Positions 15,278-55,329 of a DNA stretch of 64,000 nucleotides are shown one piece after another; positions within the stretch are counted from its first letter, which is position 1, and every line of letters starts with the position of its first letter. The notes below the pieces were generated by a model that was given only the letters and a program-made list of their open reading frames with translations, did not search any database and was not told where the DNA came from. Made by a program: the position numbers and the translations under genes. Location of the stretch: contig NW_027596233.1 of assembly GCF_964194155.1 (NCBI RefSeq), forward strand, positions 248,001 to 312,000, in the 5' to 3' direction. This DNA is from Cetorhinus maximus (taxonomy: Eukaryota).

Positions 15278-15494
15278 ATGGATCAAAATCAGACTAAAAT
15301 AAATTGGAATGTTACAACAATCTGTCCGAACCTGCAAACAAATGATTCGAAAATTGAAACAATTGAAAGGATTTTCTCTTTGGCGTTTTATCTTCTTTCT
15401 CAAGATTCGATAACTCTAGCTGAGCGGCTCTATTTCATATTTTGAGTTGCTAGAAGATGTTACTATTCGTTCCTCGCGATTTTTGGTGTCCCTG
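15278..15494 (+). pseudogene. GPR139-like GPCR copy 1 (pseudogene), exon 1
   Basis: MDQNQTKINWNVTT...AFYLLSQDSITLAERLYFIF*VARRCYYSFLAIFGVP then phase-1 donor G|GTAAGC. 217 nt, identical in length to exon 1 of the intact minus-strand paralogue. In-frame TGA at 15443-15445. Confidence 0.88.
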
Positions 15495-15559
15495 GTAAGC
15501 ATCCCTATCCATATATTAATTTTCTAATCCACGTTTAACACTATTAGTAGTCTCGCTAT

Positions 15560-16050
15560 TTAAATGTTGGGAAAAATGCAGCCTTTGCCTCCAGACCCGA
15601 CACAAACTCTGCCCCCTCGCCATTATCTCCCTCTCTCTCCACGGCCAATATCTTAGTGAGAACCAGACTGTTCACAAACTCCACAATCCCTTCAGCACTG
15701 AATTGATTTCCGACACCATGTACGTGACAGCATTAGCCCATCACACTGTCAACTTTATCGTATCACACATCTCCAACTCTGGCTCAAGTAAGCTGCTGAA
15801 TAAACACTCACCTGTGTCTTTGTTAAAGCCGAATCAAACGCTAACTTAGCTGCTCACTTCCTTTACAAGTTTTAATCAGCCACAGCTCATCCAAAACTCT
15901 GATGCCAGTATCCGACCTCACACCAAATCCCGTTCCTCCATCACTCCTGTACTCATTGGCCTAGTTTGGTTCTCTGTTTGGCAGCATCTCAATCCATCTT
16001 GCGATTCGTATGATTGTATCCCTACGTGGCCTCACTGTTCCAATTCATCC
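15560..16050 (+). mobile_element. L2 LINE C-terminal relic in the intron of copy 1
   Basis: QLIQNSDASI..HTKSRSSITPVLIGLVWFSV resembles the L2 motif QNxAARx..R..HITPxL..LHWLP. Confidence 0.6.
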
Positions 16051-17934
16051 CACTGCTCTGCCAATTTCTGATAATCCTGCTAATAATTCTAATTAATTAT
16101 GTCAAATTCCCTACAGAAAGTAAACATGTTTCTCTCGGTAAAACCCTCTGGCCGTAATTTGGAGCTATGCTGAGTCACTGTTGGAGGCGTTGACAGGTTC
16201 AGCCGCTTTACAATGGTCCTGATCGTGTCCTTCCTCCCTTCCCGGCATCTGCCGTATGTTGCTTCCTGTCCCTAACTGTTTACAATAACGCCATGGCTTC
16301 GGTACTCCGTGCCTCTCTTTCTCTGTCGTTCTTTCTCTCTAATATAACACCAATGCCCAACTCCGCCAAAGGCCCCTGCCCCGCCCATGCACCCAGCCCG
16401 TCTAAAAAATCCACCATTTTATCTGGCATTGCCTCTCCACACCGATCATTCCAAAGTGGGAAGGATGAAGTTATTTTTTGTAGTTCCCGCATCAATCCGG
16501 CTTCACCAGCTCTGAGCTCTGTCCTTGTCACTGAGAACAGACTCAGTCTGAGCCAGACTCTTCAGTGGCTAGTTATCATGCATTTGCACCATCACTGAAA
16601 CCACATAACTGAACCTTCTTAATATTGCCCGTCTTCGCCGCTACCTCAGCAGCCACTCCCGGAGCCCCCATGCATTCACTTAACAACTCTAAATGCAATT
16701 ACTCTCCTACATTCATCCCTCCGATAGCTTGAGTCAGTTCCACCAAGAGCTGCTGGACAGGAAATTTAGCTGCATGCCCGAGAACATAAACAATTTATCT
16801 CTGCTGCTTCATTTTGGTCTTTTAATAGCAGGAGGAGATGCTTCACTGGAACACGGCCCTTTTCACCAACGAGAGAATGAGCACCCTCCCTGCATCCATG
16901 GACCACCGACTCCATCCCCCATGCTTACTCAGTTCCTCCTTCGTCAATGCACACTGTCTCATCAATCCTGTGTCCATCCAGCACAGCCAGCTGCAACTGC
17001 CTGACTCCAGCCTTCCTACTTTTTCAAACCCTGCTCAACTCGTCACCCCACGCACGAAACGACCACAATGACAACACTCCTGCCCCAAACAAGACCACTA
17101 TCCATCACCCCAATCAGCACAAGCTCCCGCTCTACATCAGTTACAATTACCATCAACGCCTTGTCCGAGTGTGACCTTCGTTTATCCACATGCACTACTG
17201 GCCCAACCGTCGGACTTGGCTTCGCTGCACACCCCACCGCTCAACTGTCGCACCCATCCCTACCAGCACTCCCACATCGAACACTCCAGGCCCCCTTCTA
17301 CTCCATCAGCCCTGTCATCGCCACTGTTGCCTCGCAGGCTCGTTCTTCACCCTTGGACAACCCACCCATATGCTCCCGACGTCAGAAGCACTCTCCCACC
17401 ATTCCCCAGACCCTGCGTCAACGCCTCATACCCACTCCTCATTATTCCCAGTGGTTCCCCATCACTTGCTGCTACCATAGCGACTTAGTTCACACTCTAT
17501 CCTTCACCAAAGCTTCCATGGCATCTCGATCTCTCCCCTACACCCCACTCAACTTCCCTTTCAAAGGATCCAGGCCCAACGCCTCTCTTCCCTCCTTCAT
17601 CCCACGATCCCCTCATAAATCCTTTAACCCGGGGCTCCGTGTAATCACTTCAACTCTTCTAATTCCCTCCTTTCCCATTACATCCATTATGCACATATCC
17701 GGTGATACCCTGCTCCCCAGGAGAACTGCATCCCCACGCTCATCACCCCCAGCTTTTGCCATTTGATGGACTCTGCTTTACACCATAACACAGTCGTCCA
17801 ATTGTTTCTTTCATGTGCAATTATCTCATTTTATCACTGGATAGAGTAACATTTTTAAAACCCGGATATATATTTAATCAAAATAACATTTTCACTGAAG
17901 CCCGATGTATAATTTTTATTTAACTTTCTTGCAG

Positions 17935-18832
17935 TAAACTTGTTAACGATTGTGATCCTCAGTCGCGAAAAATGTCGTCTCTGTAATTGTTTCAGACGTT
18001 ACATTTTGACCATGGCAGCATGGTCATGACCATGTTGTTATCCTCGACCCGATACTGAGGCATATTCCGGTTGTTTATTATGAACATTTTTTTATTTCCT
18101 TTATTCCATTTCTGTGCGTATTATCCATTTTGTCCTGCTTTATGCAACCACGGGCTGTTCTGTCTGGTTCACTATTTCTTTCACCTTTGATTGATTTATG
18201 GCCATTTATTGCCAGAACCTGAAATGTAAATATTTCACAGAGAAAACTGCAACTGTGTCTCTGGGATAAGTTGCTGTGCTGAGCTTTTTAAACGACATTT
18301 TCTGGTATTTTATGTTATCAGGTCTCTATTCACTGTCGAACGGACCCTGGCATTGGGCCGTAACAGTCGATGTTCCACTTTCTCCAGCCTGGGGAACAAT
18401 CGAGTTGCTCCATCACATTCTGACTCCGCTGATCACATTTTGCCTGATTGTGCTGCACAATATTTTCACCGTCAGACACATTTCACTGAAAACAAAGCCC
18501 ACACCAGATCGCGGACTCATAGCAGTGGCGAGACTGAACGGACCCAGACATGGAGAGTCGAAGGAAATCTATCATTTTGCTATTTATCATTTCGGCCAAT
18601 TTCATTCGTTGTTGTCAATATTAATAGTTTATTGCATTTTGTTCCGGATGTGGCATTTGGGGTATATGAATGAATGGATGGGATATTCTGTGCGGGTATT
18701 GGGTTTCATGCTGCAGCTCTTGACTTGCTGCACAAACACGTGTAATTATGCCTTGTCCCAGAAAAGTTCAGAGAGCAGTTGAAGATAGGGCTGAAATACC
18801 CCTTTACCCCAATCCTTAAGTTCATTCAATGA
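17935..18832 (+). pseudogene. GPR139-like GPCR copy 1 (pseudogene), exon 2
   Basis: Acceptor ctttcttgcag|TA AAC TTG TTA ACG ATT. Reads NLLTIVILSREKC.., LRHIP.., CSVWFTISFTFD*F (TGA at 18192-18194 replacing the DRF Arg), WYFMLSG.., WGTIELLHHILTP, LGFMLQLLTCCTNTCNYAL, KYPFTPILKFIQ*. Several frameshifts. Confidence 0.92.
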
Positions 18833-20109
18833 TCCGAAGAAGTAAGTTGCTGGAAGTTTCAAGCATTTTCTACAATCAATTACAGGCGCCAGATGCGGCT
18901 TTCACTTAAAAACAAGGTGGAAACTTTCCCTAAAGTATCAATGCTTACAGCCGGGCTCGTTATTTGAACACAGGGCTGGAGGTGGACTGTCGCTTTGGTA
19001 ACAGAGCTGTGCTCTGCTCTGCAAACATATGGTGTATGCTGTGGTTTCAGTGAGGAGCTGGGGATGTCACTGTGCCATCAGATTGGCGTGGTGCCAATAT
19101 GGCAAGAGAAGAGTTTGCAGTGCATGATGACGATAATAGAGCTAGTGGACACCTTAATTTGGTAATACAGCAGGAGATGTCATTATGGCAGCAGGTAAAT
19201 GGGGGGCACATGGCACTTTAGTAATCTATTATATAAAAAAATCGGCATTCAGAAATTCAAATCCCTTGCAGCGATTGGACAACAAGCTTCCCTCCCTGTT
19301 ATCACTCCTCTCTCATTAGCTGATCAATCTGTCTATCATTCCGCTCTCTAACAACGATTGTAAAGTGAGCCGTCGGGCCACCCCCGGTATCGCGCCCAAC
19401 TATTGGCCGGCCTGGCTGCCAGTCAACTATTAAGCTCTCTCCTAGTGGAGAGCAATGTGCCCAACCTCTTGCAGCATTCGTCACCCATTGGCCGTTCCAC
19501 CCGCCCATTTTTGCTCCCTCAAACCCCACGGACTTTGAGATGTCAGGCTGAAGAATTACTGCCTTTGAACTGGTATTTCCACCTCTCTGCGTTCAATCAG
19601 AACGGTGTTAATTTGTCTCCCCCAACCCCACCATCACCCTCGCCAGCATCACCCACCTCCATTTTGCTGGGTAAGTGTCACGATAAGTTTGCTCCCTTGC
19701 TCTCATTGCAGAAAAAGCTTCGCTTTCCCGTGAACCAGCCTTAGTCTAAACTGTCTTCATCATATTGTCCCCTGGCATCGACATTGAGTATCGCTCCCTA
19801 CCTTTGGCCAATATGATCTGGACAATATCCCACACCATGATACTGACTGCCATTGATCCGCCCGTCCTCACATTTGCCCCTGGTCCTCCTGCCAATCAAG
19901 CTGTCCCCTTGCGTTATTTGGACAGAGATCTCAGCCTCCTACAATGGCATCACTCGTCTCCATTTGCCAATCCCTCCTGCCTAGAACAGGTTAGGGAAGG
20001 AAGTCCCCGACACTGACATTTCTCTCTTCTCATTGGCTGGGCCGCATGTTATTCGTCCCACTCCCTCGCACTGACTGAACAGTGAGCTGTCCTTCTGCCC
20101 TCAACTCAA

Positions 20110-20640
20110 GCAGCATCCCATAGTCCAGCTCAATACAACCCGCTTGATTAGCATTGCAACAACAATTATTCTCTCACTCCCCGACCCACGCACATTAGTC
20201 GATGTGTGTACCACCAACAAGGTGCACAGCAGGAATTCACCAGGTCTCCTTAGACAACACCGTCAAAACACATGACCACTACCATCTGCAAGGAGAAGGG
20301 CAGCAGATAAGATGGGGACACCAGCAGGTGGAAATTCCCCTCCAAGTCACTCACCAGCCTGATATGGAAATAAATACAGCATTAACGTGCCGAGTCCGTA
20401 TGACTCAACTTCAAACGGACTCAAAACGTTAACGCCGTCTTCCTCTCCACAGATGCTTTCAGACCTGCTCAGTTTTATCGAGCAGTTTGTGTTTTTGTTT
20501 CAGATTTCCAGCATCCGCAGCATTTTATTTTGGCTTACAAATATGCCACCTTTCCTTCAGTTTATCTGAATTAAATCTTGGAACCCCATTCTTATCATCA
20601 CTGTGGATGTACCAAACCCCATAGACTGCATGGACTAGCT
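20110..20640 (+). mobile_element. LINE ORF2 C-terminus and tail, interrupted by a Penelope-derived fragment at ~20380-20540
   Basis: ..VCTTNKVHSRNSPGLLRQHRQNT*PLPSARRRAAD-type LINE C-terminus. The insert (ggactcaaaacgttaac..ctctccacagatgct..cagacctgct) matches the reverse complement of the Penelope end at 640-740. Confidence 0.6.
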
Positions 20641-23600
20641 GTTTTATTCCACGTTTACATCCCATGTTTTTTTTTTGTGTATCTTCTGTTCCCTGTATGT
20701 GATTGGAAAGGGATTTTAAAGGAGTTTGAATTTAGGTTCCAGAGCTATGAATTGGTAGCTCATATTTCATTCTTTTGCCACTGGTCAACGACAGTTTGGT
20801 CGCTAAACAGTTTATTTTTATATTTACTAAGTTTACAAGCCTAGTGTTCGTACTCTGTTAACCTAAAATGAAGAGTTTATTAGAATTGAGGAATCCTGGT
20901 GGTTCGTTCAAACTAATCACATTTCTCGCGGCTCGGGAACAATGGTGTTGGGCATTACAGCACATTCTTCACTGTGAGTCGTGACTCTAATTCAAAATAA
21001 ATTAAACGTTAATATGAGAAAACGTGCACATAGAGAAGACCAGATATGTTCATTGTCTGCGAAAGTGCAGGTAAATAATTATTCACGTGCATGTTTTAGC
21101 CACGTCCACATTTTGACATGCTTCCATGCTTGACAAATGATGTGGCCTATCGCCTGTTCAAATACAGCTTTGGCAAAGGTGATTTCGTAAAGAATAGCGA
21201 TTAAATCTTTAATCGTGGCCAAAAAATGCAAGTATCAGAAAAGGTTTAAAACCTGGTGAGAGAATAAAACACACAAATCAATCAACAATTAACATGGAAC
21301 AATATTATCAAAGCGTGGATTTATACAGTAAAAAAAAATAATTACATTGAGAATCTCAATACAACATTCAGTGCAATGATTAATTTCGCAGGCCAAAATG
21401 CTTTGGGATCTATCGATGGACGAGATTGCCCGCAGAGATGCGGACTTGAACAGAATAGTTGCCGCAATCAGGAAAAGAGAATTAAATAAAGCTCGAAATA
21501 TTCATGTTGGGAACTATATCTGTCGTGACCAAAAGACATTGCACCTATTGATCCGCAGGTATTGATCTCAGTTCAAATGGTTTCAATCTGCTTTCACTTC
21601 TACTCTTTTATAAGTTTGGAGAGGATTTGGATGCAAAACCCCATATGAGACCGGCAATTACTTCATGAAGAATGGTCGCACGTTTCCCTTTAGTTTAACC
21701 ATCGTGACCTATTAAGGCTTTTCAACCCCTTTCCAAAATCTCCACGAACAAGTGCATATATACTCAAAGGTCACGGTCAAGCTGCACATTCTTTTGAATT
21801 GCAATTTTATTTTCTATTGTCTTCAAAAATGACAAGTTATCATGACCTGGCCAGCGACACTTACAGGGGATGATTTTTTTAATGTGTAATGTCATCTACT
21901 TTCCAATGAAAATAGACTGATCAGAGTATTTCCTAAATGATCAGAACTTAGAAACTGTAGATTCGCAGAGAGGTTGTCAGGTATTGTACAAAAATCTCTG
22001 GCCTCAACTGAGAATTGCACCACTGAGACTGATCAGGAAGCAATAATGTGAAGGATTACATCATCAAGAGAAATAGGCACTTTATGTAGGAAGGGATACT
22101 ACCTCCTATGTTTTCAATTCAGGGAAGGAGTGGGAAAAAATGGCGCCTTTCAGAATGCTCCATACAATGTAGATGATTAGGGAGATCAGTAATTTCCTGA
22201 AAAAAAGACTTGGTAAGGGAATCAGGGCTTTGGATCAATAACGGAAAGAGCGATGAATGTCGCCGAGGTGCATATGTTCATAGCTGAGTCTGCACCAGAT
22301 AAAGACATGGACGAACAGCATAATGGTAGCAGGGCTGAGCTGAGAGCCAACGCAACAAACCCACTGAAGGCAGCATTTTTCAAACTGCGGCCCATGGGCT
22401 TGGTAGATAACCAGGAGTCAAATATTGTGTTGATAATCACTAGCAGCAAATGAACATGATGTGGATTTCATTTAGTGACTTTAATACATGGTTTGCTTCG
22501 TTTGAGTTGACGGTGGCGCATTCCGCCTTGTCAATGGATGAAAAGACAAACATGTGACCCTTGCAAGCTTGACATTACATAGTCGTACAGATTACACCAC
22601 GATAGTGGGACGAATTGACGAGAAATAACATCGAGTGAAAAAGCTGATGTCATTAGAGTACAACGAAATCCAGCCACTCTCCCGCTGATGAGATCCCCGG
22701 TAGTAAATATTAGATGAGAAAGTGGAGACCCATCAAAGACCGTGATATTGCAAAGTCGGGGGAGAAGCCAGTGCTGGAGTTTCTCCGCTTCAGTTAGGGT
22801 GGGTAAGAGTGGAATCCAGTAATGGAAGCCCAACTAAGAGACGGGTGTCAGAGATAGAAAATGGCAATGGATTGTAGGAGAGGTTTAGAGAGTCTATGTG
22901 ACAAATACATTTCGCATTCGGAAAATGAGCCCAAGCAGGACAAGCAACTGGTCATTTCACGGATTCAGAAATGTGATGTAGGAGCAATGAAACTGGAAGC
23001 TCGGGCGAGAGAGGAATTTGGAATCGATGAAAAAGAAATCCATAATCATCTTGAGGCACCAGACAGGGAGGTGAACGTGGTCATTGAAAAGCGAACGATG
23101 TTGCTGATGAGGCGAATGATAAAGGTTTGAGCTTTTTCCATTCTCGAGAACCTCATGAATTATGTTAATATAGAGGTAGCCGGGACAGGAAATTGAGAGA
23201 CCTTTGGCGGGCGTATTTAGCCGCAAATAAATTCCGGCTCTCTACCAATCTCCCCAACCCTCAACTCTCTCCACTCCCACCCTGCTCTCTTTCTTCTATC
23301 TTTCTGTCTCGCTCTCTGTCTCTCTCTGTCTGTTTCTCTCGTTCTCTCTCTCTCGCTTTCTGACGCTGAACCAGTTCTGCCAATATCACTCAATTAACGA
23401 TCTAAGTTAAACTGCCGAAGCCAACATTACCATCAACAATTTAATTTTCAATCTATGTTTATTGTTAACTTGCAGCTCGACAATCATAGTTTGCATCCTT
23501 ATTATCGGGATTTGCAGGGATAACACCATGCCCTGTTTTTTGATGCGATTGTGCTTCAGAATAATCATTTCACAATGCAATTTACATCGGAGTCAAAGCT

Positions 23601-23759
23601 GCTGATGTAATGTGTTTGTTTACATAGTGTGACTAATAACATTAATCGGGAATACAACAGTCTCAGTGGAATAACATACCCTTGATATATCAATTACCAT
23701 CAGAATGGGTGAGCTCAGAGTGCGTGCCGGAGCTGTGGGTTCAAGTCTCCCTCACAGTA

Positions 23760-23829
23760 ATGGAATATCCAGTCATCTATCAAATAGAAGATATTTACTT
23801 TCTTGTTCATCCGCCAGTTGGAATATTTG
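23760..23829 (+). CDS. GPR139-like orphan GPCR copy 2, exon 1
   Basis: MEYPVIYQIEDIYFLVHPPVGIF then phase-1 donor G|GTGAGC. It splices in frame to the acceptor at 27553/27554 at the same TM1 position as the paralogues. Confidence 0.75.
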
Positions 23830-25309
23830 GTGAGCCATTGCATCCAGTTCTTAATGTTGTAACTCGCGATTTGACACAACTGCTCGAATCGACAATGTTT
23901 CTGTAAATATATGTTTAAAGCTGACTGAAAAGTTTTATACGTTGAGGTATGAAATTTCTTAAACATTTGCTTCCTCGACCTTTTGTGAATTTCATGTATC
24001 TGCATTCACCATTTTGGATGCAATCCTGACAATTCTAAAAGTTTATTTGTTGTACTGGGTAAATTGGTATCAGCTGTTCGGGTAAGAACACAAGGACATT
24101 GGAAACAGGAGGTGAAGTATGGCGTAGAGCACGAGGAGCCAGTTCAGCATACGATCAGTTCGTGACTCATTTGAAGTCGCCCTCAGCTCCATTTTCCATT
24201 GATTTCCTAATAATCCATTACTCTGCTACATTGTAAATCTCCGTTTAATCAAACATTGAGCATTTTCAATATCCAGATTTCTGTTTCCAAGACGATTCCA
24301 GAGATTTCCGACTCTCGGAGTGAAAATAGCCATAATCATCCTCAGTTTGAATGTGCGGAAGGTGATGATGAAACAGTGCCCTTATGGCCTTTATTATTTC
24401 ATGAGGTGAAAAGTCCTGACAGAATATATCCTGTCAATTCATCCTTAAAAGACCTCTGTATCGCATACGTTGTACTAATATCAGCACTTATTTGTATCAA
24501 CTCCTTTGATTGTGGACGCAACCAGCTCAAAATTTTCTCATATGATAACTTCATCTACGCAGGACTAAGCCTAATAATCCTTGCCTGAACTACCTCCCAT
24601 TCAATAATATCACCCGTTATCTCAGTAGATCAATAATGCGTGTGATATTGCAGATTGGCTCTCACCAGCGTCCTAACAACACGCAGAAGACGATCGATTG
24701 TTCCTGCCAGTATCACTTTGCGGGCCGAACCTGTCCTGGAATATCACTGCTCAATCTTCTCAGTTATTCATAACGAGGCAGCTAACTGCTACATGAGGCT
24801 GCGCAATGTCAGACCTCTAAAAATAAACAACATTAATACGTTTTGCCACAACTTCAATCATTCTTTTGCTTTTCACTAATCTAAAATATTATTCCATTCT
24901 GCCACGTTGTATGCCTTGCTGCCGAACTGAGTGTGTTCCTGTTTCTTTCACCTAATCTTCCTTGAATGAATGTGGATGAATTTACAGGCTATTACAGGAT
25001 CTCATTGTGAAATGGAAGGTATTGCTGTTATGTTGCATAAGTTTACAGTGACCTTGTGGGACTAAGAAAACTTTCATGTTAGTTGTAATCTAGGATGAGC
25101 AGTGTCAATGATTTGTTAAACTATCCCCTGCTAAATCTGAATTTTACAATTAAAACAAATGGAGTTCCAGTTATGTTTAGGGTTCTCTGGCAAAGGAATT
25201 ATGTTTTGCTTGTTCCTTGTTTCGCAGAAAGATTGAACAGTGCATGACGTGGGAATGACCGCTCACATTATTTCCCTCCTGGGTTATTTGCGGGTCAGCA
25301 CAAGATGAG

Positions 25310-25545
25310 ATGAAACAAAAATAAAAACTGAAAATGCTGGAAAAATTCAGCCTGACTGGCAGCATCTGTGGAGAGAGTAACCGATTTAACGTTTCCGGTC
25401 CCTACAGCCCTCATTCAGCTCTGGAAGAAGAGTCATACAAACTCAAAACGCTAATTCCGTTCCTTTTTCTACAGGTGCTGTTCGACCTGCTGAGTTTATA
25501 CATTGCCTTCAGTTTTTAGTTATGATTTCCAGCATCCACACTATT
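25310..25545. mobile_element. Palindromic (fold-back) non-autonomous element made of two inverted Penelope-like termini
   Basis: Left arm aatgctggaaaaattcagcctgactggcagcatctgtggagagag is the imperfect reverse complement of right arm ctttttctacaggtgctgttcgacctgctgagtttat. Both match the Penelope end at 640-740. Confidence 0.7.
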
Positions 25546-27553
25546 TTTAATGTAACTTAAGAGAGGATGCAGCATTCTTTTGAAAATTGGATGCCTTCAC
25601 TAAGGGAGATGCAGGCAAAGATGGGGAGCAGATGAGATAAATCATGTCACTCAACCGTGTTTTTCACTTTCTTGCTAATTTATGCTGAGTTACTGGCTGT
25701 TAAATTAATGAAATTAAATTGATGCTATAGCCATGAATCAGAGATTCAGGGAGGTAGAGAGAGGATAGACGTGAATCTTCTTTCCGTGCCTCTGATGTAC
25801 ATTTTTTAGTATTTTTGACGCACTATTACCTTAATATATTTTGCATAAAATCTAGAGTTGAAACGTTGACATATTTTAAGAGGCTTGAGGAAACTCTTAC
25901 TCAAGCTGGAATGTGGAGTGTGATTGTCATGAGAAATCTCGATAGGCCGCGTATCATTAGATAATGATGGTTAAGTTTGCGCAAATACTAAATTATTGCT
26001 TGGTTTCTTCATTAATTGCTAGATTCTGTGGACTTTCACCTGAAACATATGTGCTCTGTAATTTTTGTTCTTTTAAGTAATGAAAAGGATTTGAACAGAG
26101 AAAAAAGCCAGTTAAAAAATAGAGATTGCGATCATCTGTTGACATGTTAAACTTTTCACAAACGTTTCAAAATGAACAAAAAAAAAACACGCCAAAATTT
26201 AAATACAGGCAAGTAGCATTTATGTCTAGGATACTCTCTCAGGATAATAACATTGAGTCATATGTGAAACGGAGCAATGCAAGAATGCTGTTAGAGGTAT
26301 AGAGGGGACAAGGAGATATGACAAACGAAAAGCAATGAGGGAGATGAAAGAGAGAGAGAGAAACAGAGGGTGCAAGTGAAAGAGAGGGAGAGTTAGGGAG
26401 AGAGAGTTACGGAGAGAAAGGCGGCGCGTGGGGGATGGGTTGGGGAAGTCATGTGGGGTGTAAGTGAGATAAAATACGGTGTGAGTAATTCATGGTGATG
26501 AACTGCTAAAGTCTCTTGAACGATTTGTGAGGGCAACTGAGATGAGGGCATGTGGAATATGTTGCAGGTTCGTTTAGGTTCACTGCTACACTGATTTGTT
26601 ATGTGCTTACATCATTCGGTGAATGTTCCTTTTCTGGATATATGAACCGAGCGAGCAGTCATTGTTGAAAAATTTCTTTCTTTTTCACTAATGGTGTTAT
26701 ATTATTAGATAATGCTTTGAAAATATGTATTTGCTCAATTTAATCAAGGACGAGGTGCATTACCTTCATTGTGTTTGTTGCTCCTTTATACGCAATGGAA
26801 CGTGAAACATAATTTTCTTGAACATATTTCAGGACCATCGAGCTGTTCCCCAACACCAATTATATTAGTTATCAATGGTTAAACCTAATAATTGAGTTGT
26901 GTATAAAGGTGATCCATGTGTTAGACTTCACCTCAGGTTTTGCTTCCATATCAATCTTGGAATCTCAGTCTCTTATTGCATTGAACTGAATCCACTATCT
27001 TCTCATCCAACACTTAGGTTGACCCACTTTCCCAAAGCAATTGCTCAGGCCTCCCATTCTGATGTTAGATGGCTCCCTCCCAATTTCACGCACGGATTCA
27101 GTTTTTAGATGAATCTCCCAAGCAATTACCACGCTCAATGACTCCTCCCCATTCGTATTGATTATTTCCCCCCTGCTTTGTGTGAAACCATGGTTAGCTT
27201 GCATTACCCTGAACAACTAATCAGTTGCTTTCAGCATGTACACAAATTTTCTTCATCAGCGTGGAACACAAAGCTGGTTTAAACAAAAAATGTCCCTGCT
27301 TCCTCAATGACATTCACTCCTAGGCTATCGTTCGACGTCCTCACTTGCCCCTTTCACTGCCTCCAGTTTGCAATGTATTCAAATTAATGACTAATCGATC
27401 TCCAATAAGATTATATATTTTTGTAAAAATCATCTGCTCATAAACATTCCTTTTTGGATGCAATAGCAAAGGCATCCTATAACCTGACAGACTGCGGTTT
27501 TTCTTCCATGGCGGATCATTGTTTATGTGTTTCTTTACTATTCTCTGTTCCAG

Positions 27554-28488
27554 TTAACGTGCTAACGATTCTGATATTATTCAGAGGAAATTGTGGTCTC
27601 TCCAAATGTATCAACCGCTACCTGTTGGGCATGGCAATGGCCGATCTGCTCGTCATCATCACTGATCCTATATTAAGAGGGATATTTCCAATATACTTCC
27701 CAGGTACATTTATGGAGATTACTCCCGTTTGCTGCCTCAATAACGTCCTGGTTTTTGCAGCCACGACTATTTCTGTATGGCTAACAGTGGCGTTCACCTT
27801 TGATCGTTTTGTGGCAATTTGTTATGAGAAGCTGAAAACAAAATATTGCACCCCGAAAACGGCATCTGTGGTTCTAGCAACAGTGACTGTGCTAGGCCTC
27901 TTAGAGTGTACCCCTTGGTACTTCGCCTCTGAAGCTGTATATATAATTGATAACGTTCCCTGGTATTGTACCCTTAAAACTAGCCTCGTTAATTCGCCTG
28001 CTTGGGCAGCATATGAGTTGTTCCACCGCATTTTATCTCCTTGTGTCCCGTTCTTTCTAATTTTCCTCCTCAACCTTCTGACTGTCAGATGCATTTTAGT
28101 GACCAGTAGAGTCCGTAGAAGTCTACAGGGCCTCAGCAGTGGAGAGAACCGCAAGGATCCAGAGATGGATCATAGAAGAAAAGCTATCATTTTGCTGTTC
28201 AGCATAACAAGCAGTTTTTTAATGTTATGGGTGACACAGGTTGTATTTTTCGTTTATCAACGAATTACAGAACAATATGGTTTTTCTGCCACTGACCCCC
28301 TTTATATCACAGAAAGTACTGCAATGATGCTGCAGCTTCTCAGTACATGTACCAACACGTGTATTTACGCTGTGACACAGGCGAAATTCAGAGAGGAGTT
28401 TAAGAACCTGTTGATCTACCCATTCAAGCTGCTTGTTAGATTATTTAATTGCTTGAGCGAGAGCAAGGTTTTCAAGCAACAGAAATAA
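27554..28488 (+). CDS. GPR139-like orphan GPCR copy 2, exon 2 (TM1-TM7 and C-tail); spliced protein 334 aa
   Basis: Uninterrupted ORF with seven hydrophobic segments and class-A motifs YLxxMAxADL, SVWLTVAFTFDRFVAIC, TM4 PW, ECL2 Cys (PWYC), TM5 PCVP, CTNTCIY, helix-8 KFREE. Acceptor ctctgttccag|TT AAC. Confidence 0.93.
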
Positions 28489-28689
28489 ATGCCATTTGAA
28501 ACAGTAACGCCTTCTGCCTTCATTTTTATGTTGGCTGTACTAGGCGCAAACATCTATGTTGAGCTTATCCTAAGAAACTTGTTGAATATTAAAACTCCAA
28601 AGTGAAGCCTTCAGCCTGTCCCTGCAGCGCATCCTATGTCTTCAATGAGAGCGCACCCCAGCCTCAAATCCTCCATAGAAATTTCATTT

Positions 28690-30960: not shown

Positions 30961-30968
30961 TCCAATGG

Positions 30969-32940
30969 TACATAGGAGCAGAAAGACCAGAAGACATGGG
31001 AGCAAATATTAGGCCTATCGGCCAATCGAGTCAGCTCCACCATTCAATCATGGCCGATAAGTTTCTCAAACCCATTCTCCCGCCTTCTCCCCGTTACCTT
31101 TGATCCCCTTACCAATCAGGAAGCCATCTATCTCCGCCTTAAATACACTCAAATACCTGGCCTCCACAGCCTTCTGTGCTAATGAATACCATAGAGCCCT
31201 CAAACGTTGCTCATATGTTGAGCCTTTCATTCCTGGGATCATTCCCGTGAACCTCCTCTGGATCCGCTCCAGGGCCAGCACATCCTTCCTGAGTTACGGG
31301 GCCCAAAATTGCTCTCAATGTTCTAAATGTGGTCTGACCAGAGCCTTATAGAGCCTCAGCAGTATATCCCTGCTTTTATATTCTAGTCAGCTCGAAATAA
31401 ATGTCAACATTGCATTTGCCTTCCTACCTACCGACTCAACCTAAAAGTTAACCTTAAGAGAATCCTGGGCTACTACTCCCAAATCCCTTTGCACTCCAGA
31501 TTCCGGAATTCTCTCCCCATTTAGAATATAGTCCATGCCTCTATTCTTCCAAGCAAAGTACATGACCTCACACTTCCCCACGTTGTAATCCATCTGGCAA
31601 TTCATTGCCTATTTTCCTAACCTGTCCAAATCCTTCTGCAGCCTCCCCATCTATTCAATACTACCTATCCCTGCACCTATCTTTGTACCATCTGCAAACT
31701 TAGCCAGGATGCCCTCAGTTCCTTCATCTAAATCATTAATGGATAAAGTGAAAAGTTGAGTTGTGGTCCCAACACTGACCCCTGCAGAACTCCACTAGTC
31801 ACCGGCCGCCATCCTGAGAAGGACACCCTTATCCCCACTCTCTGTCTCCTGCCAGACAGCCAATCTTCTATCCATGCTAATATCTTGCCTCTAACGCAAT
31901 GAGCTCCTATCATGCTGAGCAGCTTCCTGTGCGGCACCTTGTCAAAGGTCTTCTGGAAGTCGAAGTAGATAACATCCATTGGCTCTCCGTTGTCTAACCT
32001 ACTCGTTACCTCCTCAAAGAATTCTAACAGATTTGTCAGGCATGACCTCCCCTTAATGAAACCATGCTGACTTTGCCGGATTGTACCATGTACTTCCAAG
32101 TATTCTGAAATCTCATCCTTAATAATGGTCTCCAAAATCTTTCCAACGACCGACGTCAGGCTAATCTGCCTGTAATTTCCCGTCCTTTGCCTCACTCTCT
32201 TCTTAAACAGGGGGGTCACATTAGTGATTTTGCAATACTCTGGGACCCTCCCTGATTCCAGTGATTCCTGAAAGGTCACCACTAACTCCTCCACTTTCTC
32301 TTCAGCTATCTCTTTCAGAACTCTGGGGTGTAATCCATCTGGTCCAGGTTATTTATCAACCTTCAGACCTTTCCGATTTCCTAGCACCTTCTCCTTGCTA
32401 GTGGCCACCATACTCACCTCTGACCCCCGACTCTCTTGAACTTTGGGGATGTCACTCGTGTCTTCCACTGTGAAGACTGATGCAAAGTACCTGTTCAGTT
32501 CCTCGGCCATTTCTTTGTTCCCCAATACTACTTCCCCAGAGTCATTTTCCTGCGGCCCAATATTCACTTTTGCCTCTCTCTTACATTTTATATATCAACA
32601 AAAAACTCTGGCAATCTTCTTTTATAGTACTAGTTAGTTTAAACTCATATCTAATCATCTGTCTCCTTATTTCTGTTTTAGTTGTAGTCTGTTGATCTTT
32701 TTTAGGCTTCCCAATCCCCTGGTTTCCCACTGCTCTTCACCGCATTGTATGCTTTCTCTTTAGCTCCTATGCTGTCCCTGACTTCCCTTGTAAGCCATGG
32801 TCGCTTCGTCCCCCCTTTAGGATGCTTCTTCTTCCTAGGGATGAATTTTTGCTGGGTCTCCCAATTAATCCCGGAAACTCCTGCCATTGCTGTTCCACTG
32901 TCTTTCATGCTAGGCTCATCTCCTAGTCAATTCTGGCCAG
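30969..32940 (-). mobile_element. 5'-truncated CR1 LINE nested inside the RTE element
   Basis: NVTPLFKK..GNYRQISLTSVVGKILE..SQHGFIKGRSCLTNLLEFFEEV..DFQKTFDKVPH..GVLQGSVLGP; LERIQRRFTGMIPG; 3' UTR. Short internal deletion near 31190. Confidence 0.95.
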
Positions 32941-32944
32941 CTCC

Positions 32945-37360: not shown

Positions 37361-37689
37361 CTAATTCAAAGAAACGATTCAAGGAAGGAAATGGTGCCCC
37401 ATCCTTGCAGCTCAACTTTATTCATCCAAATATCTGTTGTTTGCAAAACAAGAAAAAACTAAATTATTTTCAGTAAAAGTTTCACATCATCTTTTCAATT
37501 ATGGCATATTATGAATAAAGAATGACGAGTAAGCAATGATGTCATTGTGCTAAATGTCACTCATTCCCACCATGTATTTTCTACAAACATTTGATGGGTT
37601 GTTTTAAAAGAAATTACTCCAAAGAATGCACGTCCTCTCCTGAATGTGCCGAGGTAAAACGCTTTGCAACGTTTGCCTCTGATTAGCAT

Positions 37690-37975
37690 ATTTAAATCTT
37701 CTGGCATTTACTATCAATGCGTATTTTCCCGCGTTCATCAGGTCTTTTCTGAACTTAGCCTCAGTCAGAGCATAAATTAATGGTGCTTGTGCCGGAACTG
37801 AACATGAATCCAGCATTCTTCTAGTAATGGACACTATAATACCGAGTGATTGCTTAATGCAGAGTGATGAAAGATATAACCTGTAACGCGTATTAGATGA
37901 CAAAACCACCGGAAATGCTTAAGCGCAAAGCGTCGGGTTTCTTTTGTTTATCCATATCTGGGTTATTGATGTTTT
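37690..37975 (-). pseudogene. GPR139-like GPCR copy 4: decayed 3' remnant (ICL3-TM6-TM7-helix 8)
   Basis: Minus strand NNPDMDKQKKPDALRLSISGGFVI*YALQVISFI aligns without gaps to copy 2 KDPEMDHRRKAIILLFSITSSFLMLWVTQVVFFV. Downstream AGFM.. and IYALTEAKFRKDLMNAGKY align to IYAVTQAKFREEFKNLLIY. Confidence 0.75.
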
Positions 37976-40014: not shown

Positions 40015-40080
40015 TGTGTGTGTGTGAGTGTGTTTGTGTGTATGTGTATGTGTGTGTGTGTGTGTGTGTGTTTGTATGTG
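40015..40080. repeat. (GT)n microsatellite, imperfect
   Basis: Directly visible. Confidence 0.9.
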
Positions 40081-41169
40081 TTGGGGTATGCTGGGAGTGC
40101 GTTTTGCGGGTTCGAGAAGGAGGGTTAAGAATCTCACTGATCCTTTCCAACAGTGTGAAGAAGGGCTAGAGTGTCCTCTTCAATGTTGAGGAGAGATTTA
40201 CAACACGTTGAGAGTTGAGCGGAAAATAATTATTGGCACAAAGCACAACAATGAGCATCTTCAATTCAACGCCAGCACAACAGTCCAGCTCTGCAACTGA
40301 TTTATTAATAAGTTATTTGAACGCTGCATTTGGATGTCAATTCAAAAATTCACTACAGGAAATCCGACTGAATTTTAACATGCCCTGGACAGAGCCTCCG
40401 TGTACTCTTGGGAATGCAGTGGGTGCGCTGAATGAATTTACTTCAGAAAGCCATTCAAAATAACAGCTTCACATGCCACGTGTAAATAATTTCTGAGACA
40501 CATCATTCCAAGCTGATTCTTCCATCCACCCAGACAGACCCTTTTGTTAATAGCGTAACACCATGAAGTGTTCACTGAAAATAAAGACGGGAATAAAATC
40601 GTGTAGCCATCTGTGATATTTGCCATCTGTGATCTGCAGCCATATGTGATAGTTAGGAGATTTCCAATAGACGGCACTGGTCTAAAAGATCACAGTTGGA
40701 ATAATGTCATTATACAAATTTGATTTATTCCATTGCACTTCAGTTAAGAATTAAAACATCTTATCATTTATATTTGCTCAGACACTCAACACCATTGAGT
40801 AACTATGAGCCACAGGTGGGGCAGTTTAGCTGGCAGCCATTGCAGCTATTTAGAAAACTCTTTCATTTGTACAACTCAATGCAGAATGAAGCAAGTTTAT
40901 CAAATTTGCCTCTGATGGCCTTAAAATCAATTGAATCCTTAGGGTGAAATGTTGTTTCCCTGTATTGGCCTCCAGGAGCTTCTATTTTGTCCTGTACTTT
41001 ATTTGAATTCTGTTGGCCTAACAGTACTTGAAGTGAAGATTTCCCCATTCTAAAAACTCATCATTTAATAAACGACTTCGAAGAGCGTCCTTCACTCTTC
41101 TGCAAGATTTGAATATTGAATTAATAAAAATATATACCTGAATGGGATTCCACATGCTGCAAGGAGCAA

Positions 41170-42110
41170 TGGAATTTGGAAACAAGAGGACTAGGTCATT
41201 CGGCCCGTTGAGCCTGCTCCAACATTAAACAAGATAATGGCGGATCATCTACATCAACACCTTTTCACAGTACCATACACAAACCCTTGCATTCTTTAAT
41301 AACAAGAAATTTATCGATTTCTGTTTTAAACATGCTCAATGACTCGAATATCACAGCCCACTGGCGTAGAGAATTCCAGAGATTCACCATCCTATAAGTG
41401 AGGGTACTCCTCCGCACCCCAGTCCAAAATGTTCTACCTCATACTCTGAGGCTGAGCCCTTACTCTCGAACACCTAAACCGGGGTAAGAATATTTACGTG
41501 TCTAACCGGCTGAGCAAGGTAAGAATTCTCTATGTTTCAATGAGATAATCTCTCACTCTTCTGCACTCTAGAGAACATAACTCTCAAAATCTCCCCATAG
41601 GGGATCAACCTGGTGAACTTTCCTTGCAATCCCTCGATGACACGTATGTACTTCCTTAGTTAAAGTGGCTAAAACTGTGCAAAATATCCTGCTGCTATCT
41701 CACCAATGTTTAATGCAATTGCAGCAAGCCATAGTTACTTGTGCAATCAAATTCACTTGCATGAAATACTAAGACACCATTTAAATTTCTAATTGCTTCC
41801 TTCAACTCATAGTTTATTAGTGACTGATGAAGTCAAATATGCAGCTCAACTTCCACATCAACACTCACAATTTATTAACTACCCTGCGTTTCTGATTGTC
41901 TAACCAAAGTGGATAACTTCACACATTCTTCCCAATTTTACTCAGTCCCATGCCTCCACTATTTTTTTTTTTAAATCAGGTACTAAGACCTTTGCAATAG
42001 GTTCTAACATTCTCCCTGATACTGATGTTAGGCTGACACATCCACAGAAATCTTTCACTCTCCATATTTTCTTTTAAATTGTGGTTACTTTTGCTCGTTT
42101 CCAACAGTTC
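41170..42110 (-). mobile_element. Decayed CR1 LINE 3' region
   Basis: Antisense CR1 hallmarks (cattcggcccgttgagcctgctcc, gtagagaattccagagattcacc, cctggtgaactt, aaactgtgcaaaatatcc) colinear with the CR1 at 30969-31700. Confidence 0.7.
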
Positions 42111-42444
42111 GGGATACATAACATCAAGAGCCATACTTTTGAAATTTTTGAAAAATTGAAGAACATTGAATTATTTGGACACTTTCTAGGGAATGTACCT
42201 GTTTAATTTAGAGGTTATAATTTCAGTTTGGACTGTGAGATAACTGCCTGTTCGAATGAGTTACATATCTTCAGCTAATTCCCCAGCGAGGCAACTGAGA
42301 GCTTACTTGAATTTACTTGAATTTTAATATCGGGATTAAAAAAATAACGTGTCCAGATGCTGCGTGCTCCTAGTCAATTTCTGGTATACATATTACTGGG
42401 AGCAGCCCCTTTGCTTTGAAATTGTGCTTTGTAACAGACCGCTC

Positions 42445-42640
42445 CCCCCACTGGAAATGTGAAATTCAAGGTGAACATTCCGGAAACCCCCAGAGGTTCA
42501 TTCCCAGCCCTGTAACATCACACTGCCCACGTTGGAAATTTGGAATTCAATGTGAAAAATCAGGAAACTCCCAGTGTTCCATCCCCTCCAGTGAAAGACC
42601 CATCCCCGCGCTTGAAATGAGAAATTACATGGAATAATTG
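42445..42640. repeat. ~80-bp direct repeat, about 2.4 copies, in the 3' UTR of GPCR copy 3
   Basis: ctggaaatgtgaaattcaaggtgaacattccggaaacccccag / ttggaaatttggaattcaatgtgaaaaatcaggaaactcccag / cttgaaatgagaaattacatggaa. Confidence 0.7.
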
Positions 42641-42669
42641 TGGAAATACTAATGTTTCGGATGGTCTAA

Positions 42670-43568
42670 TCATTGAACTAATTGAAGAATTTGAGTAAAG
42701 GGATATTTTAACATACTCCACAACTGTTCCCTGAACTTCGTCTGTGTCACAGCGTAAATCGCAGTGTTTGTACAGCAACTCAGGAGCTGCAGCATGAAAC
42801 CCAAATCCTGAACAAAATAGTGTAGATAGAGAGACTTGTAGCCAAGATCGTACATCCGGATCCATATAGAATAAACCATTAACGTTGCCCATAACAGTAT
42901 GAAATTGGCTGAGATCACAAACAGTAAAATGATCGATTTCCTTCGACTCTCCATCTCTGGGTCTCTGGGACACTTCCCACTGTTGTGAGCTTGGAGTCTC
43001 CGGCGGCTCCTGCTGGACACTAAAATGTACCTGCCGGTCAAAATATTGAGCAGCACAATCATCACAAATGGGATACACGGTGTTAGAATGTGATGGGTGA
43101 ACTCGATACTTCCCCAGAACGGTGAGGACAGAACTTCTTTTGTGTAACCACAAAACCAGGGGAAGTTTATGAGCCAATACTGACCTGTGAGCATAAAATA
43201 CCAGGAAATGTTCTTTGAACAGCTCAGCACAGTCACGGCGCCCAGAACCACAGCTGCCGTTTTTTCGCCGCAATATTTTCTTTTCAGCTTTGGGCAACAA
43301 ATGGCCACAAATCGATCAAAGGTGAAAGCAACAGTAAACCAGACGGAACAGTCAGTGGCTGCATAAAGCAGGACGGCGTGGATATTACACACGGGGATTG
43401 ATTGCAGGAAAACAAAATACTTATCAAACACAATTGGAATATGCCTCAAGTTCAGGTCCAGGATAATGATCAGTAGATCAGCCACTGCCATGGCCACCAG
43501 GTAACGGGTCACACAATCGGAAAGACCACAACTCTTGCGCTTGAGGATTATAATCGCCACTAGGTTCA
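42670..43568 (-). CDS. GPR139-like orphan GPCR copy 3, exon 2; spliced protein 371 aa
   Basis: Uninterrupted ORF: YLVAMAVADL, CSVWFTVAFTFDRFVAICC, PWFC, HHILTPCIP, DPEMESRRKSIILLF, GFMLQLLSCCTNTAIY, KFREQL. Acceptor ccctcctttgcag|TG AAC. Confidence 0.94.
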
Positions 43569-44599
43569 CTGCAAAGGAGGGAAATAAACAATGAGAATAT
43601 ACATCACACTGGTATCAAAGTTGCCAACAAGATCGAGGTGTTATTGAGATGTCTTACAGCAACCTCTAATGTTTTGAAATCAATGGCCCCGAAAGAAGGA
43701 AGAAGAAGGTCTGTGACACTGTGGAAGGGAGGATAGATTGAATAACAGATGAACAGAGGTGTAGGAGCAGGGGAGAAAGGCGTGGCGGGCGAGCCAGAAT
43801 TTTGGGGAGAAAAACTCAGGAGTGACAAGGGAGCTGGTGTTGACAGGGAGGAATCAATGGTGATGGTTGTGTAAATGACAGAGAAGAGGTATGTGATGAT
43901 CCCTCTTTGGTCCCAACCTATCTGCACAACGGAAGATTATGTAATACTGAGACAGAGAGTTTCCACACACCGCTCATGTAATTTCAAGATTTGTCACGTA
44001 ACATGCTTCCTTGTGAATAATAAAATCAAATGAAATGGTACACATTCATATATTACAAAGTCGGAAATGATAAAAAAACATAACGAACACTTGACATTCA
44101 AATTCGCAAACAAACGCATAAGAAAAATTATTTCCAGATATGTAACATGCAATTAGATTAATACGAGAGTATAACATACACAGGTAGATTATTAACAAAG
44201 CTTAAGCTGTTGATTGAAAGCGTTGCAGGCACGAAGGGTTCTCTACTCAGTGCTTCAAGATAAATGGAGTTTGGGAAAATCTGCCTTTTATTACACAGTG
44301 TGGTTGAGCCTTTGGTTTGAATAAATGCAATAACATGTAACACGCATTAGCCACTTTTACTGTCCGATTACCTTAAAACTGTCTCCCAAGGAATGTTATT
44401 TTGAAGTGTTTCTTTCATCATCAATAGTCTCCCTGTCCTTTGACCATGGTGTCGGATTCCCAATGTCCCACACATTGACATCCCCGTTGCGAACAACCTC
44501 AGAATACGATGTTATCGGAACTGGAGTCTTTGGAAGCGCATCCAGGCAACCTGTCAAAGTCAAAGGCATCCAGGGTATACCTTACCTGCACTGTCCTCC

Positions 44600-45700
44600 T
44601 CCTCCTGTGATGTTTCTCGGGTTCCTGGTGCCAAACACTATATCCTCATGATGGTGATGATATGAATGGAGCAGCAGAACATTGTTAAATTGACCACCTG
44701 CTCCAGCGTGTACCTGAGGGCTCAATCTGCACGGCTCCGGCATCCGAAGCATTGCTTCATCACACTCACGGCTTGATCCACGATGTTCAGGGCAGCTCCA
44801 TTGCTCCCACTATTCCGGAGTTGTGTTTACTTGCTTGGCTGACGTCAGGGGATATTGGGGGCGTGTTTTTTTGATCCATTTATCTGCGGGGCAGCCTTCA
44901 TCTCCGAAGAGCCACATTATGGTTCTCTAAGCAGAGCTGAATGTGTTGGAAATCGCCGAGTGCTTCAGAATGAAGTTATCGTGTCTGCAGCCAGGATATA
45001 GGATATTCACCAGCATGACGCACTGTGCATAGCCGCACATCAGCTGCACCTCAATGGACTGAGAAACCTTTCATATCACGTAACACTCCCCCTTCAAATG
45101 GAAAGACGACAGAGCCACGGACAAAACCGCGAATCCCGCTATCCTGTGAAACCATGGCACCACACTTTCTGCTTCTCCCTGTTGAGGTAGCAAACAGTGC
45201 AAACGCTTCTCCCAGCATTTATGTGCTTATGTTCCCTCCCAACCATTGGATACTTTGTTAGACAAAATACTGCGGGGGAAATGAATATGTCACCTGTTCC
45301 TGTTTGAATCTTTCCATGATCCTCTGACCTGAACGGCCATTGAATGCACCTCCTCACCCTGATGTGAGGCCCGAGCTCCTACTGAAAGAGGTGATACATA
45401 TATGCGGCCACCTCCTCGCTGCATCAGACTAACATCAGCCACTGCGCCTGTGTTAGTTGTTGATTTCTTAATGTTCCTGGAAAACCCGGGCTGCGTAGGG
45501 CAGGACACCCCTCCTCCTCCCCCATGTTCACAGATATTTCCTTCTATGTGGCATCTGCTACATTTGCTGGTCATTGTGCAGAACCAGATGCACAGCAACG
45601 GCAGCCCCCATGCCTCTTCCAGGCAAATCATTTTTCCTCCCTGATTGTACACAGCCCCTCACAACACAACCCAGGAACCATCCACAGAACCGCAATGAAC
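44600..45700 (-). mobile_element. PIF/Harbinger (HARBI1-like) transposase relic in the intron of copy 3
   Basis: Minus-strand relics IAGF.., KGF..EVQLMC, MLVNILYPGCRHDNFILKHS (PGSxHDxxIL) and NIVDQAVSVMKQCFGC...ALRYTLEQVVNLTMFCCSIH (xxExxxGxLKxRFRCL...ACCxLHN). Confidence 0.75.
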
Positions 45701-46473
45701 TTTCCAATGATATTAAACAGTTAAAACCGATCAGCCTTGTCCATTTAAATGACACTCCAGAGGGTTTCTAATATTGTTAAACACATATTTAGCTGGGAAT
45801 GGGTAACACAGGCTTTCAGTGGACAGATAAAAGCCGAGTTTGAAAGGCATGTGTCAAACCTGCGGGAACCCCCTGTCAATCATGGAGCACCAGGTCCTGG
45901 CAATGGGTTTAATTGGAGGAGTGAAGTTATTCAGTGATATAATCACAGAATTAGGATTATTTAAATTGAGAATCTTGCAGAACCAAGACCAATGTTGGTC
46001 CGTGAGCACAGGGATGATGGCGAAATGGGATTTTGTCTACGTTACCTTACAGAAGGCCGAGCTTTGGACGGGCAGTGGTTCTTGAAGGTTTGTAAATGGA
46101 ATTGTGGGGCCAGATTAACATTTGATTAGTCGAGTCTGGCTTTAACAAAGGCACAGCCGAGGGTTACTCTGCTGTTGGGCTGAGGCAGAGGCGATGGTGG
46201 TTGATGTAAAGGAGCTTGTAGGAGACACAATATAGAATGGAGAGGACCTGGGCTCGGAAATCAGATCAGTATTAAACGGAGCACGGAGGTTGGAGACAGT
46301 TTGGTTCAGGCTTATACAATGGCGCCAGAGGGGAGTGGAGACTCTTGATAGGGAAAACACTTTATGATGGTAACAGTTGAAAGTGTCTGCTGTGTTGCAG
46401 AAATGTGAAAAACAGTAACGGTAATGCAGTTAAATGTGGTTTAGGAAATGGATTGCTGAATGGAGCGTCTTAC

Positions 46474-46690
46474 CTGGGACACCAACAATGGATAGGATGG
46501 GATAGTAACCCACCTGAATCACCGCAAGAACACCATGGATCCAATCAGCTAACGATAGCCAATCTTGAGAAAGATAGTAAAGTCCTGAGGATAAACTCCT
46601 TTCCATTGTTGTCACATCCCAATATATTGTCCTCAGAATCTGATACATTGTTGTAACATTACAATCTATTGTTCTTAGATTCTGGTCCAT
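46474..46690 (-). CDS. GPR139-like orphan GPCR copy 3, exon 1
   Basis: MDQNLRTIDCNVTT...VIQVGYYPILSIVGVP then phase-1 donor CAG|GTAAGA. An in-frame TGA upstream makes 46690 the first usable ATG. Splices in frame to 43568. Confidence 0.9.
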
Positions 46691-46781
46691 TGTTGTAGCA
46701 TTACAATCTATTGTTCTCAGATTCTGATCTCTGCTCTCGCTCTCTCAGGCGCCTCTGATCCTTGTGACCGCTGGATGAGAT

Positions 46782-55290: not shown

Positions 55291-55329
55291 ACTCCCCTCT
55301 CCGTTAATATGCTTGCTCTCGACCCCTCT

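Follow-up and report, generated by a model that had tools for sequence, protein, structure and literature searches.

An elasmobranch family of GPR139-like receptors around a four-locus cluster of Cetorhinus maximus: variable putative ligand pockets and a uniform G-protein face

The receptor loci of the window

The window, that is the whole stretch of DNA analysed, comprises 64,000 nucleotides of Cetorhinus maximus (assembly GCF_964194155.1, contig NW_027596233.1, positions 248,001 to 312,000), and it holds four paralogous loci for G-protein-coupled receptors (GPCRs) of class A between about 15.2 and 46.7 kb, located by six-frame translation, tblastn, a family hidden Markov model (HMM) and nhmmer (Table 1). 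Two of them, genes A and B, have open frames of 334 and 371 codons; the other two, the pseudogene P1 and the fragment P2, are dead. All four are members of a large receptor family found in sharks and rays, called here the radiation, in which the residues facing the predicted ligand pocket change fast and those facing the G protein hardly change at all, and which may serve chemosensory cells.

Table 1. Features of the window (positions counted from its first nucleotide)
Feature	Positions	Strand	Description
P1 exon 1	15278..15494	+	Pseudogene; N-terminus and first half of transmembrane helix 1 (TM1); in-frame TGA at 15443
P1 intron	15495..17934	+	Phase-1 GT-AG, 2440 nt; 5' part 64% similar to the B intron over 293 nt
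P1 exon 2	17935..18832	+	Stops at 18192 and 18267; six small frameshifting indels
Gene A exon 1	23760..23829	+	23 codons and 1 nt; typical N-terminus, five unusual TM1 residues
Gene A intron	23830..27553	+	Phase-1 GT-AG, 3724 nt
Gene A exon 2	27554..28488	+	TM1 second half to C-terminus, stop included
Reverse transcriptase fragment	31731..32348	-	Pfam RVT_1
P2	37703..38033	-	Decayed fragment; third intracellular loop (ICL3), TM6, TM7 and helix 8 only
Gene B exon 2	42670..43568	-	Predicted seven-helix class A fold, pLDDT 90; stop included
Gene B intron	43569..46473	-	Phase-1 GT-AG, 2905 nt
Gene B exon 1	46474..46690	-	72 codons and 1 nt; long N-terminus, one N-glycosylation sequon
42-nt tandem repeat	46604..46728	-	Three copies, overlapping the start of gene B
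18-nt-unit array	47501..51511		4 kb, about 223 copies
Further tandem arrays	52045..64000		Units of 33, 54/58 and 69 nt
Reverse transcriptase fragment	53977..54384	+	Pfam RVT_1

The two-exon models of P1, A and B come from splice-site scans, and they bear out the original prediction that all three complete copies are split by a single phase-1 intron in TM1, located in each case directly before the TM1 asparagine, N1.50. The same prediction counted four paralogous loci, two intact and two dead; the four loci, the decay of two and both reading frames were recovered, and the word intact is uncertain for gene A because five residues of its TM1 are almost unseen in its relatives. Regarding the dead copies, P1 and B have a DNA identity of about 70%, with a dN/dS of 0.53 and a dS of about 0.6, so that P1 is an old inverted paralogue of B, long dead. 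P2 was found by nhmmer with E 4.5e-16 and 28 bits; the reversed window reached at most 2.6 bits and five block shuffles, which still hold pieces of the genes, at most 18.3, so that P2 is a real paralogue fragment.

Genes A and B are 49.5% identical over 319 codons, with a dN/dS of 0.25 at synonymous sites near saturation. Their identities are unevenly placed: the extracellular loops match at 10 of 49 positions, the intracellular loops plus helix 8 at 35 of 60, which agrees with the contrast between the two sides that had been reported from the sequence. Both proteins carry DRF, LWxT, CTNTxIY, CGLSxC and DPEMxxRRKxIILLF. The departures from the canonical class A motifs had been put forward as diagnostic; all those quoted are present, and they are less diagnostic than supposed, given that GPR139 itself, non-canonical in TM6 and TM7 as the window genes are, reads LWAP and NFFLY.

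As for the 5' ends, the 42-nt repeat extends the N-terminus of B by a 14-residue unit; in the related protein P0122 this N-terminus is shorter. Upstream of P1 (15028-15277, + strand) and B (46691-46940, - strand) the DNA is homologous and can be aligned with a score of 114, not reached by any of 408 controls, and both regions have an AT-rich box some 110-130 nt ahead of the start codon; similarity of the A upstream region to either was not significant. A candidate promoter motif common to A and B was dropped, because 90 of 600 random segments scored as high.

The five TM1 residues of gene A are a His, a Pro, a second Pro, a Leu and a Phe, which occur at the corresponding positions in 0/138, 2/136, 0/129, 3/132 and 1/140 relatives, respectively. 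The closest relative of A is a Carcharodon protein, 86% identical, whose database model has an unrelated N-terminus; this match suggested a mackerel shark as the probable source of the window. Only 3 of the 33 differences between the two fall in conserved columns, which make up 96 of the 290 (p 8e-4), indicating that exon 2 of A is under constraint. Gene A would accordingly be either functional with an odd TM1 or recently relaxed.

Class assignment and relation to GPR139

The window proteins A and B match Pfam 7tm_1 with 68 and 58 bits (cut-off 30.5), the sole Pfam family above its cut-off, and the fold model, with a pLDDT of 90, has a Z of about 26 to peptide GPCRs. Together with the conserved N1.50, D2.50, R3.50, P5.50, Y7.53 and the TM3-ECL2 cysteines (ECL, extracellular loop), these scores assign A, B and their family to the class A (rhodopsin-like) GPCRs. 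In the fold search the top matches, tied at Z 25-26, are without exception class A receptors of the peptide type; the best 50 do not include GPR139, and the search is uninformative on the ligand. OR, TAAR, V1R, V2R and T2R families of Pfam gave no match in the window proteins at E 0.001, and membership of these families is ruled out both by Pfam and by the nearest solved relatives, namely GPR139 and peptide receptors.

Among solved structures the best match is GPR139, with E 2.8e-11 for A, 9.7e-9 for B and 1.3e-29 for the family profile. It is the nearest characterised relative of the radiation, amphioxus genes named GPR139 stand at the base, and we place the radiation in the wider GPR139/GPR142 group. 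The window genes are nonetheless not orthologues of GPR139, in agreement with the original prediction. The phmmer scores to GPR139 are 46.5 and 38 bits, and two other vertebrate orphan clades are far closer to A and B (31-35% identity, BLAST E 1e-27 to 1e-51), one of them as a supported sister. GPR139 would be expected as a single copy; the window has four loci, and two shark genomes have dozens of clusters each. True GPR139 and GPR142 are not among the rows of the trees described below, and their exclusion rests on scores and residues.

As for these residues, the ligand contacts of GPR139 include F109, H187, W241 and N271 (PMC5430874, in part) and R244 (PMC8807744, in part). Gene A keeps three of the five, the equivalents of F109, H187 and W241; gene B keeps two, H187 and W241, with Tyr in place of F109. 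Both thus retain W6.48, H5.43 and an aromatic residue at 3.33, and have neither R6.51 nor N7.39; E108 is lost as well. Over the 165 family sequences W6.48 is kept in 160, H5.43 in 92 and F3.33 in 61, R244 in 28 and N271 in 15. Further differences from GPR139 are the many copies of the radiation and their fast pockets.

Size, distribution and turnover of the family

A protein search with exon 2 of A gave 1453 matches among 3023 candidates at E 1e-10, with taxa visible for the best 120, of which 118 were named and two unnamed. All 118 named ones are from elasmobranchs, sharks or rays, in 14 species, and nearly all are auto-labelled "probable G-protein coupled receptor 139", the kind of label that had been anticipated; three further elasmobranch species appeared in a profile search. 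Clustering of these best 120 at 90% identity gave at least 40 clusters in Heptranchias, at least 42 in Heterodontus and at least 12 in Mobula hypostoma, all lower bounds, with a few models that fuse neighbouring genes. Within the same set the Heterodontus clusters are spread over 30 contigs, 15 of them of at least 10 Mb. With exon 2 of B as query, 109 matches at E 1e-30 were obtained among 50%-identity representatives, and in the ESM Atlas only "probable GPR139" clusters were found, assigned at phylum level. One family database model, P0111, is fused to a reverse transcriptase domain, probably an annotation error.

The turnover of these genes was followed on a tree of 119 rows (117 named sequences plus A and B), many inner branches of which are weak. 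Order labels require 20 changes on this tree, compared with a mean of 62.3 after shuffling (0 of 200 shuffles as low), and the tree has lineage blooms, with 24 genes in Heterodontus, 25 in Heptranchias and 20 in batoids. Older subfamilies combine sharks and rays, and A and B fall in different subfamilies. The tree thus documents gene birth and death in the radiation, and, with the cluster counts of the two sharks and the dead copies of the window, it substantiates the large, lineage-expanded family that the original prediction had proposed from four loci. Beyond that prediction, the family is common to sharks and rays, occupies many contigs and derives from a single-copy orphan that survives in amphibians and sturgeon.

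Relatives outside the radiation

The first match outside the radiation is the coelacanth protein P0241, which belongs to clade X (P0241, P0271-P0388), a group with about one gene per species in sharks, coelacanth, ray-finned fishes, amphibians, turtles and squamates; no mammal or bird was found in it among the best 120 of 145 matches. Its members are mostly auto-labelled GPR139, and two records, from Stegostoma and Hyla, are named TMEM183A isoforms, which suggests that the clade X gene adjoins TMEM183A. Clade X is the next closest group to the radiation and, like it, is without P6.50; it differs as a separate clade with shark members of its own (P0271, P0274, P0278), an ERF motif, no W6.48 and a conserved pocket. 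Two clade X models break at the residue where the TM1 intron lies in the three window copies, which suggests that the boundary is the same. GPR139 itself has an intron in TM1.

Searching with a profile built from five divergent sequences gave 46 matches among 7409 candidates, including clade Y, a lamprey and several amphioxus genes; four distant unnamed matches of this search were excluded from all analyses. Clade Y (P0250, P0390-P0406, P0421) has one match per species, from amphibians and sturgeon only in this profile search, for instance P0250 in Pleurodeles, P0390 in Xenopus and P0421 in Acipenser. It has the ICL3 acidic-Pro-Glu motif of the radiation and the same basic run before TM6, and differs in keeping DRY and P6.50 and in its invariant pocket, with F3.33 and N7.39 in 21 of 21 sequences, W6.48 in 20 of 21, and K6.51.

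Trees were built from rows hand-picked among the stored proteins. In the 65-row tree the radiation and clade Y are sisters (support 100/99*), with clade X, the lamprey and amphioxus outside, and a 30-row mixture-model tree recovers the same pair (99/99*); joining clades X and Y was rejected by the approximately unbiased (AU) test, p 0.0065. Apart from clade Y, the radiation is not firmly monophyletic (94/69 and 78/43 in the 65- and 30-row trees), owing to one unnamed basal sequence. The lamprey protein P0426 (Lampetra) has a long repetitive ECL2 insertion rich in N-glycosylation sequons, and its position in the tree is unstable.

Rinne et al. 2019 (PMC6504862) gave the tentative names GPR210A and GPR210B to orphans of coelacanth, gar and fishes that group beside GPR139/142; neither "shark" nor "cartilaginous" occurs in their survey text. 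Either clade X or clade Y may be among these orphans, the same text giving only Ensembl ids and species counts. Since clade Y keeps the GPR139-like F3.33, W6.48, basic 6.51 and N7.39, the ancestor plausibly bound an aromatic amino acid or a peptide; clade Y offers a natural proxy for the ancestral ligand and a good target for finding it.

Ligand pocket and G-protein face

Site rates were estimated separately for 165 sequences of the radiation, 101 of clade X and 21 of clade Y, in each of which a single domain spans at least 85% of the profile; for normalisation, the 285 of 321 columns occupied in every group were used. The 32 positions that we take to face the pocket are the standard ones of class A, numbered from anchor residues and hence approximate. 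In the radiation they have a rate of 1.76, as against 1.08 at 52 other helix sites of the extracellular half (p 0.026), and the order is reversed in the single-copy clades (0.49 against 0.90 in X; 0.30 against 0.99 in Y). The divergence on the ligand side that had been read from A and B alone is therefore found at pocket-facing sites across the radiation, and the two single-copy controls are slow there. The contrast recurs at 13 of the 14 ligand contacts taken from a GPR139 cryo-EM study (PMC8807744, in part), the column of the V263 equivalent having been removed as mostly gaps: 2.24 against 1.18 in the radiation (p 0.0014), with 0.48 in X and 0.32 in Y. It holds among the paralogues of single species, with rates of 3.13 against 1.29 for 35 Heptranchias sequences and 2.64 against 1.29 for 39 of Heterodontus.

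Pocket sites account for 13 of the 20 fastest among 175 transmembrane sites (p 8e-7), and the fast ones, such as 3.29, 3.32, 3.33, 6.51 and 7.39, track the inward face of the helices with helical periodicity. The 19 positions facing the G protein have instead a rate of 0.24, with R3.50 and N5.58 at 100%; over a total tree length of 67 this face hardly varies. Between close paralogues of one species, compared in 45 pairs, the differing positions amount to 436 of 1440 in the pocket (30%), 785 of 5535 at other transmembrane sites (14%) and 51 of 855 at the G-protein face (6%). These rates show that the cytoplasmic face is under purifying selection and that change is accelerated at the helix positions facing the pocket; selection thus keeps one cytoplasmic interface as the pocket changes. 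Such a combination speaks for a selected repertoire with many ligand specificities and one signalling output.

Proposed function and alternatives

In the scheme that we propose, one single-copy vertebrate orphan of the wider GPR139/GPR142 group gave rise, by repeated tandem and dispersed duplication, to an elasmobranch repertoire in which each paralogue would recognise a different small extracellular ligand and all would feed one common G-protein pathway. Amino-acid derivatives or short peptides are the probable ligands, to judge by descent from a group of receptors for peptides and aromatic amino acids. The receptors would be located in chemosensory cells facing the outside or a lumen, such as olfactory microvillous neurons, taste buds or solitary chemosensory cells of skin or gut, and would widen a known chemosensory repertoire that is small in sharks. 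Use in chemosensory cells is our best guess, one in which belief and doubt are about balanced. The radiation has the traits of this functional class, being a clustered multigene family with pseudogenes, lineage turnover, a hypervariable pocket and a conserved G-protein face; OR, TAAR, V1R/ORA, V2R/OlfC, T2R, FPR and MRGPR genes likewise form clusters with pseudogenes, lineage blooms, variable pockets and a fixed cytoplasmic face, and such receptor repertoires are a type of system already known. The radiation differs from these families, which were left out of the trees, in its peptide-type orphan ancestry and its coding intron in TM1. A more specific version, tentative and rather doubtful, would make it a family of olfactory or gustatory receptors that sharks and rays evolved independently, derived from a peptide-type orphan, at least as large as the V2R family and with one or few receptors per neuron. 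The catshark genome is reported to have only 34 V2R genes and 4-9 genes in each other olfactory family (PMC10116579, in part).

Several points weigh against a chemosensory role. According to the same part of that report, the olfactory neurons of the catshark are all Go/TRPC2 microvillous cells with robust V2R expression, so that the nose does not need another family. In a catshark brain-plus-olfactory library the 50 genes with the highest specificity include no GPCR, according to the portion of PMC11979771 that describes it, a weak point as V2Rs are absent too; term searches of the supplements of PMC8455134, PMC10115646, PMC7677710 and PMC11589584 gave no expression or ligand data for the family within the parts covered, the supplements of PMC8455134 having one GPR142 orthogroup line. 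The loss of R244 and N271 in A and B means that binding of Trp or Phe cannot be assumed. Furthermore, the rate comparison sets paralogues against orthologues, so that it speaks for diversification of ligands and not for their source; fast pockets among paralogues would indicate different ligands and leave their origin aside. The pocket rates describe accelerated change and are no demonstration of positive selection. It should also be noted that relatives of gene A are over-represented among the named sequences.

An innate-immune or irritant repertoire has a lesser, still considerable chance: the receptors would be used by leukocytes, mast-like cells or somatosensory neurons for microbial or damage-derived peptides, much as mammalian FPRs or MRGPRs are. 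Clusters of FPR and MRGPR genes carry the same sequence signature as the radiation, and on sequence alone this reading fits equally well; it also agrees with the descent of the family from a peptide-type receptor group. Cartilaginous fishes are reported to be without MAS1 and its relatives (PMC8455134, in part), which leaves such a role open. What argues for a sensory use instead is the unusual uniformity of the G-protein face and of the intracellular loops throughout the radiation, judged more typical of one sensory cell type, although the argument is weak. Lineage-specific blooms would suit reproductive receptors too, acting in sperm, oviducal gland or clasper on seminal or egg-derived peptides and diversified by sexual selection; MIP/sex peptide receptors are among the invertebrate relatives of the GPR139 group (PMC12208981, in part), and some catshark v2r genes are expressed in testis (PMC11979771, in part). 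This explanation is improbable, since gamete-recognition families are usually smaller and younger than this repertoire, with its at least 40 paralogues and with subfamilies that include both sharks and batoids.

The blooms and the frequent pseudogenes count, on the other hand, against a multiplied GPR139/GPR142-like neuromodulator system, in which the paralogues would be receptors for endogenous neuropeptides or metabolites in brain or endocrine cells. The nearest solved relative, GPR139, acts in the brain as a receptor for Trp, Phe and peptides (PMC5430874, PMC8807744, in part) that signals mainly via Gq/11 (PMC8807744, in part), and the retention of W6.48, H5.43 and F3.33 in the family is in line with such a role; receptors for endogenous ligands, however, keep their pockets, as both single-copy clades do, and we regard it as quite improbable. 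Lastly, the copies might be mostly redundant products of neutral amplification in repeat-rich, duplication-prone chromosome regions. Half of the window loci are dead, the TM1 of gene A looks damaged, and the neighbourhood is rich in minisatellites and LINE (long interspersed nuclear element) fragments with no other host gene seen in the window. The explanation is very unlikely and already largely refuted by the near-invariance of the G-protein face, by the concentration of change in pocket sites with helical periodicity, by the scarcity of A-Carcharodon differences in conserved columns and by the A-B dN/dS.

Novelty and meaning

In the literature on GPR139, GPR142 or GPR210 together with sharks, and on GPCR repertoires, no description of the family or its expansion was found in titles, abstract openings and term counts; supplements or subscription papers may mention it. 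The proteins are public under a misleading automatic name, and their expansion, of separate origin, is apparently unrecognised. Analogous class A expansions are described in molluscs and annelids (PMC11886862, in part). A family that has no fewer than 40 distinct members in each of two shark genomes, under one wrong name, alters the GPCR count of these animals whatever the tissue, and two unnamed single-copy vertebrate orphans, X and Y, have been brought to light with them.

Cartilaginous fishes have been described, in the parts of the reports relevant here, as having few GPCRs (PMC8455134) and, for all their keen sense of smell, an olfactory repertoire of very small size (PMC10116579). If the olfactory or gustatory version were true, the published view of sharks as GPCR-poor animals that smell with a few dozen receptors would be an artefact of searching only for bony-vertebrate families; the family makes this standing question of shark chemoreception directly testable.

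Genomic surroundings

Besides the receptor loci, no host gene was seen in the window, and there was no Rfam match. The 18-nt array begins about 800 nt upstream of gene B. Several of its frames are open, on either strand, but it has no Pfam match, and so is considered a minisatellite and not a gene. Simple tandem repeats are reported to be enriched on short shark chromosomes, and are also compared at chromosome ends in the same report (PMC10620051, in part); the receptor cluster may lie in such a region. Further arrays with longer units extend to the end of the window, and the two reverse transcriptase fragments, on opposite strands, are probably from LINEs.

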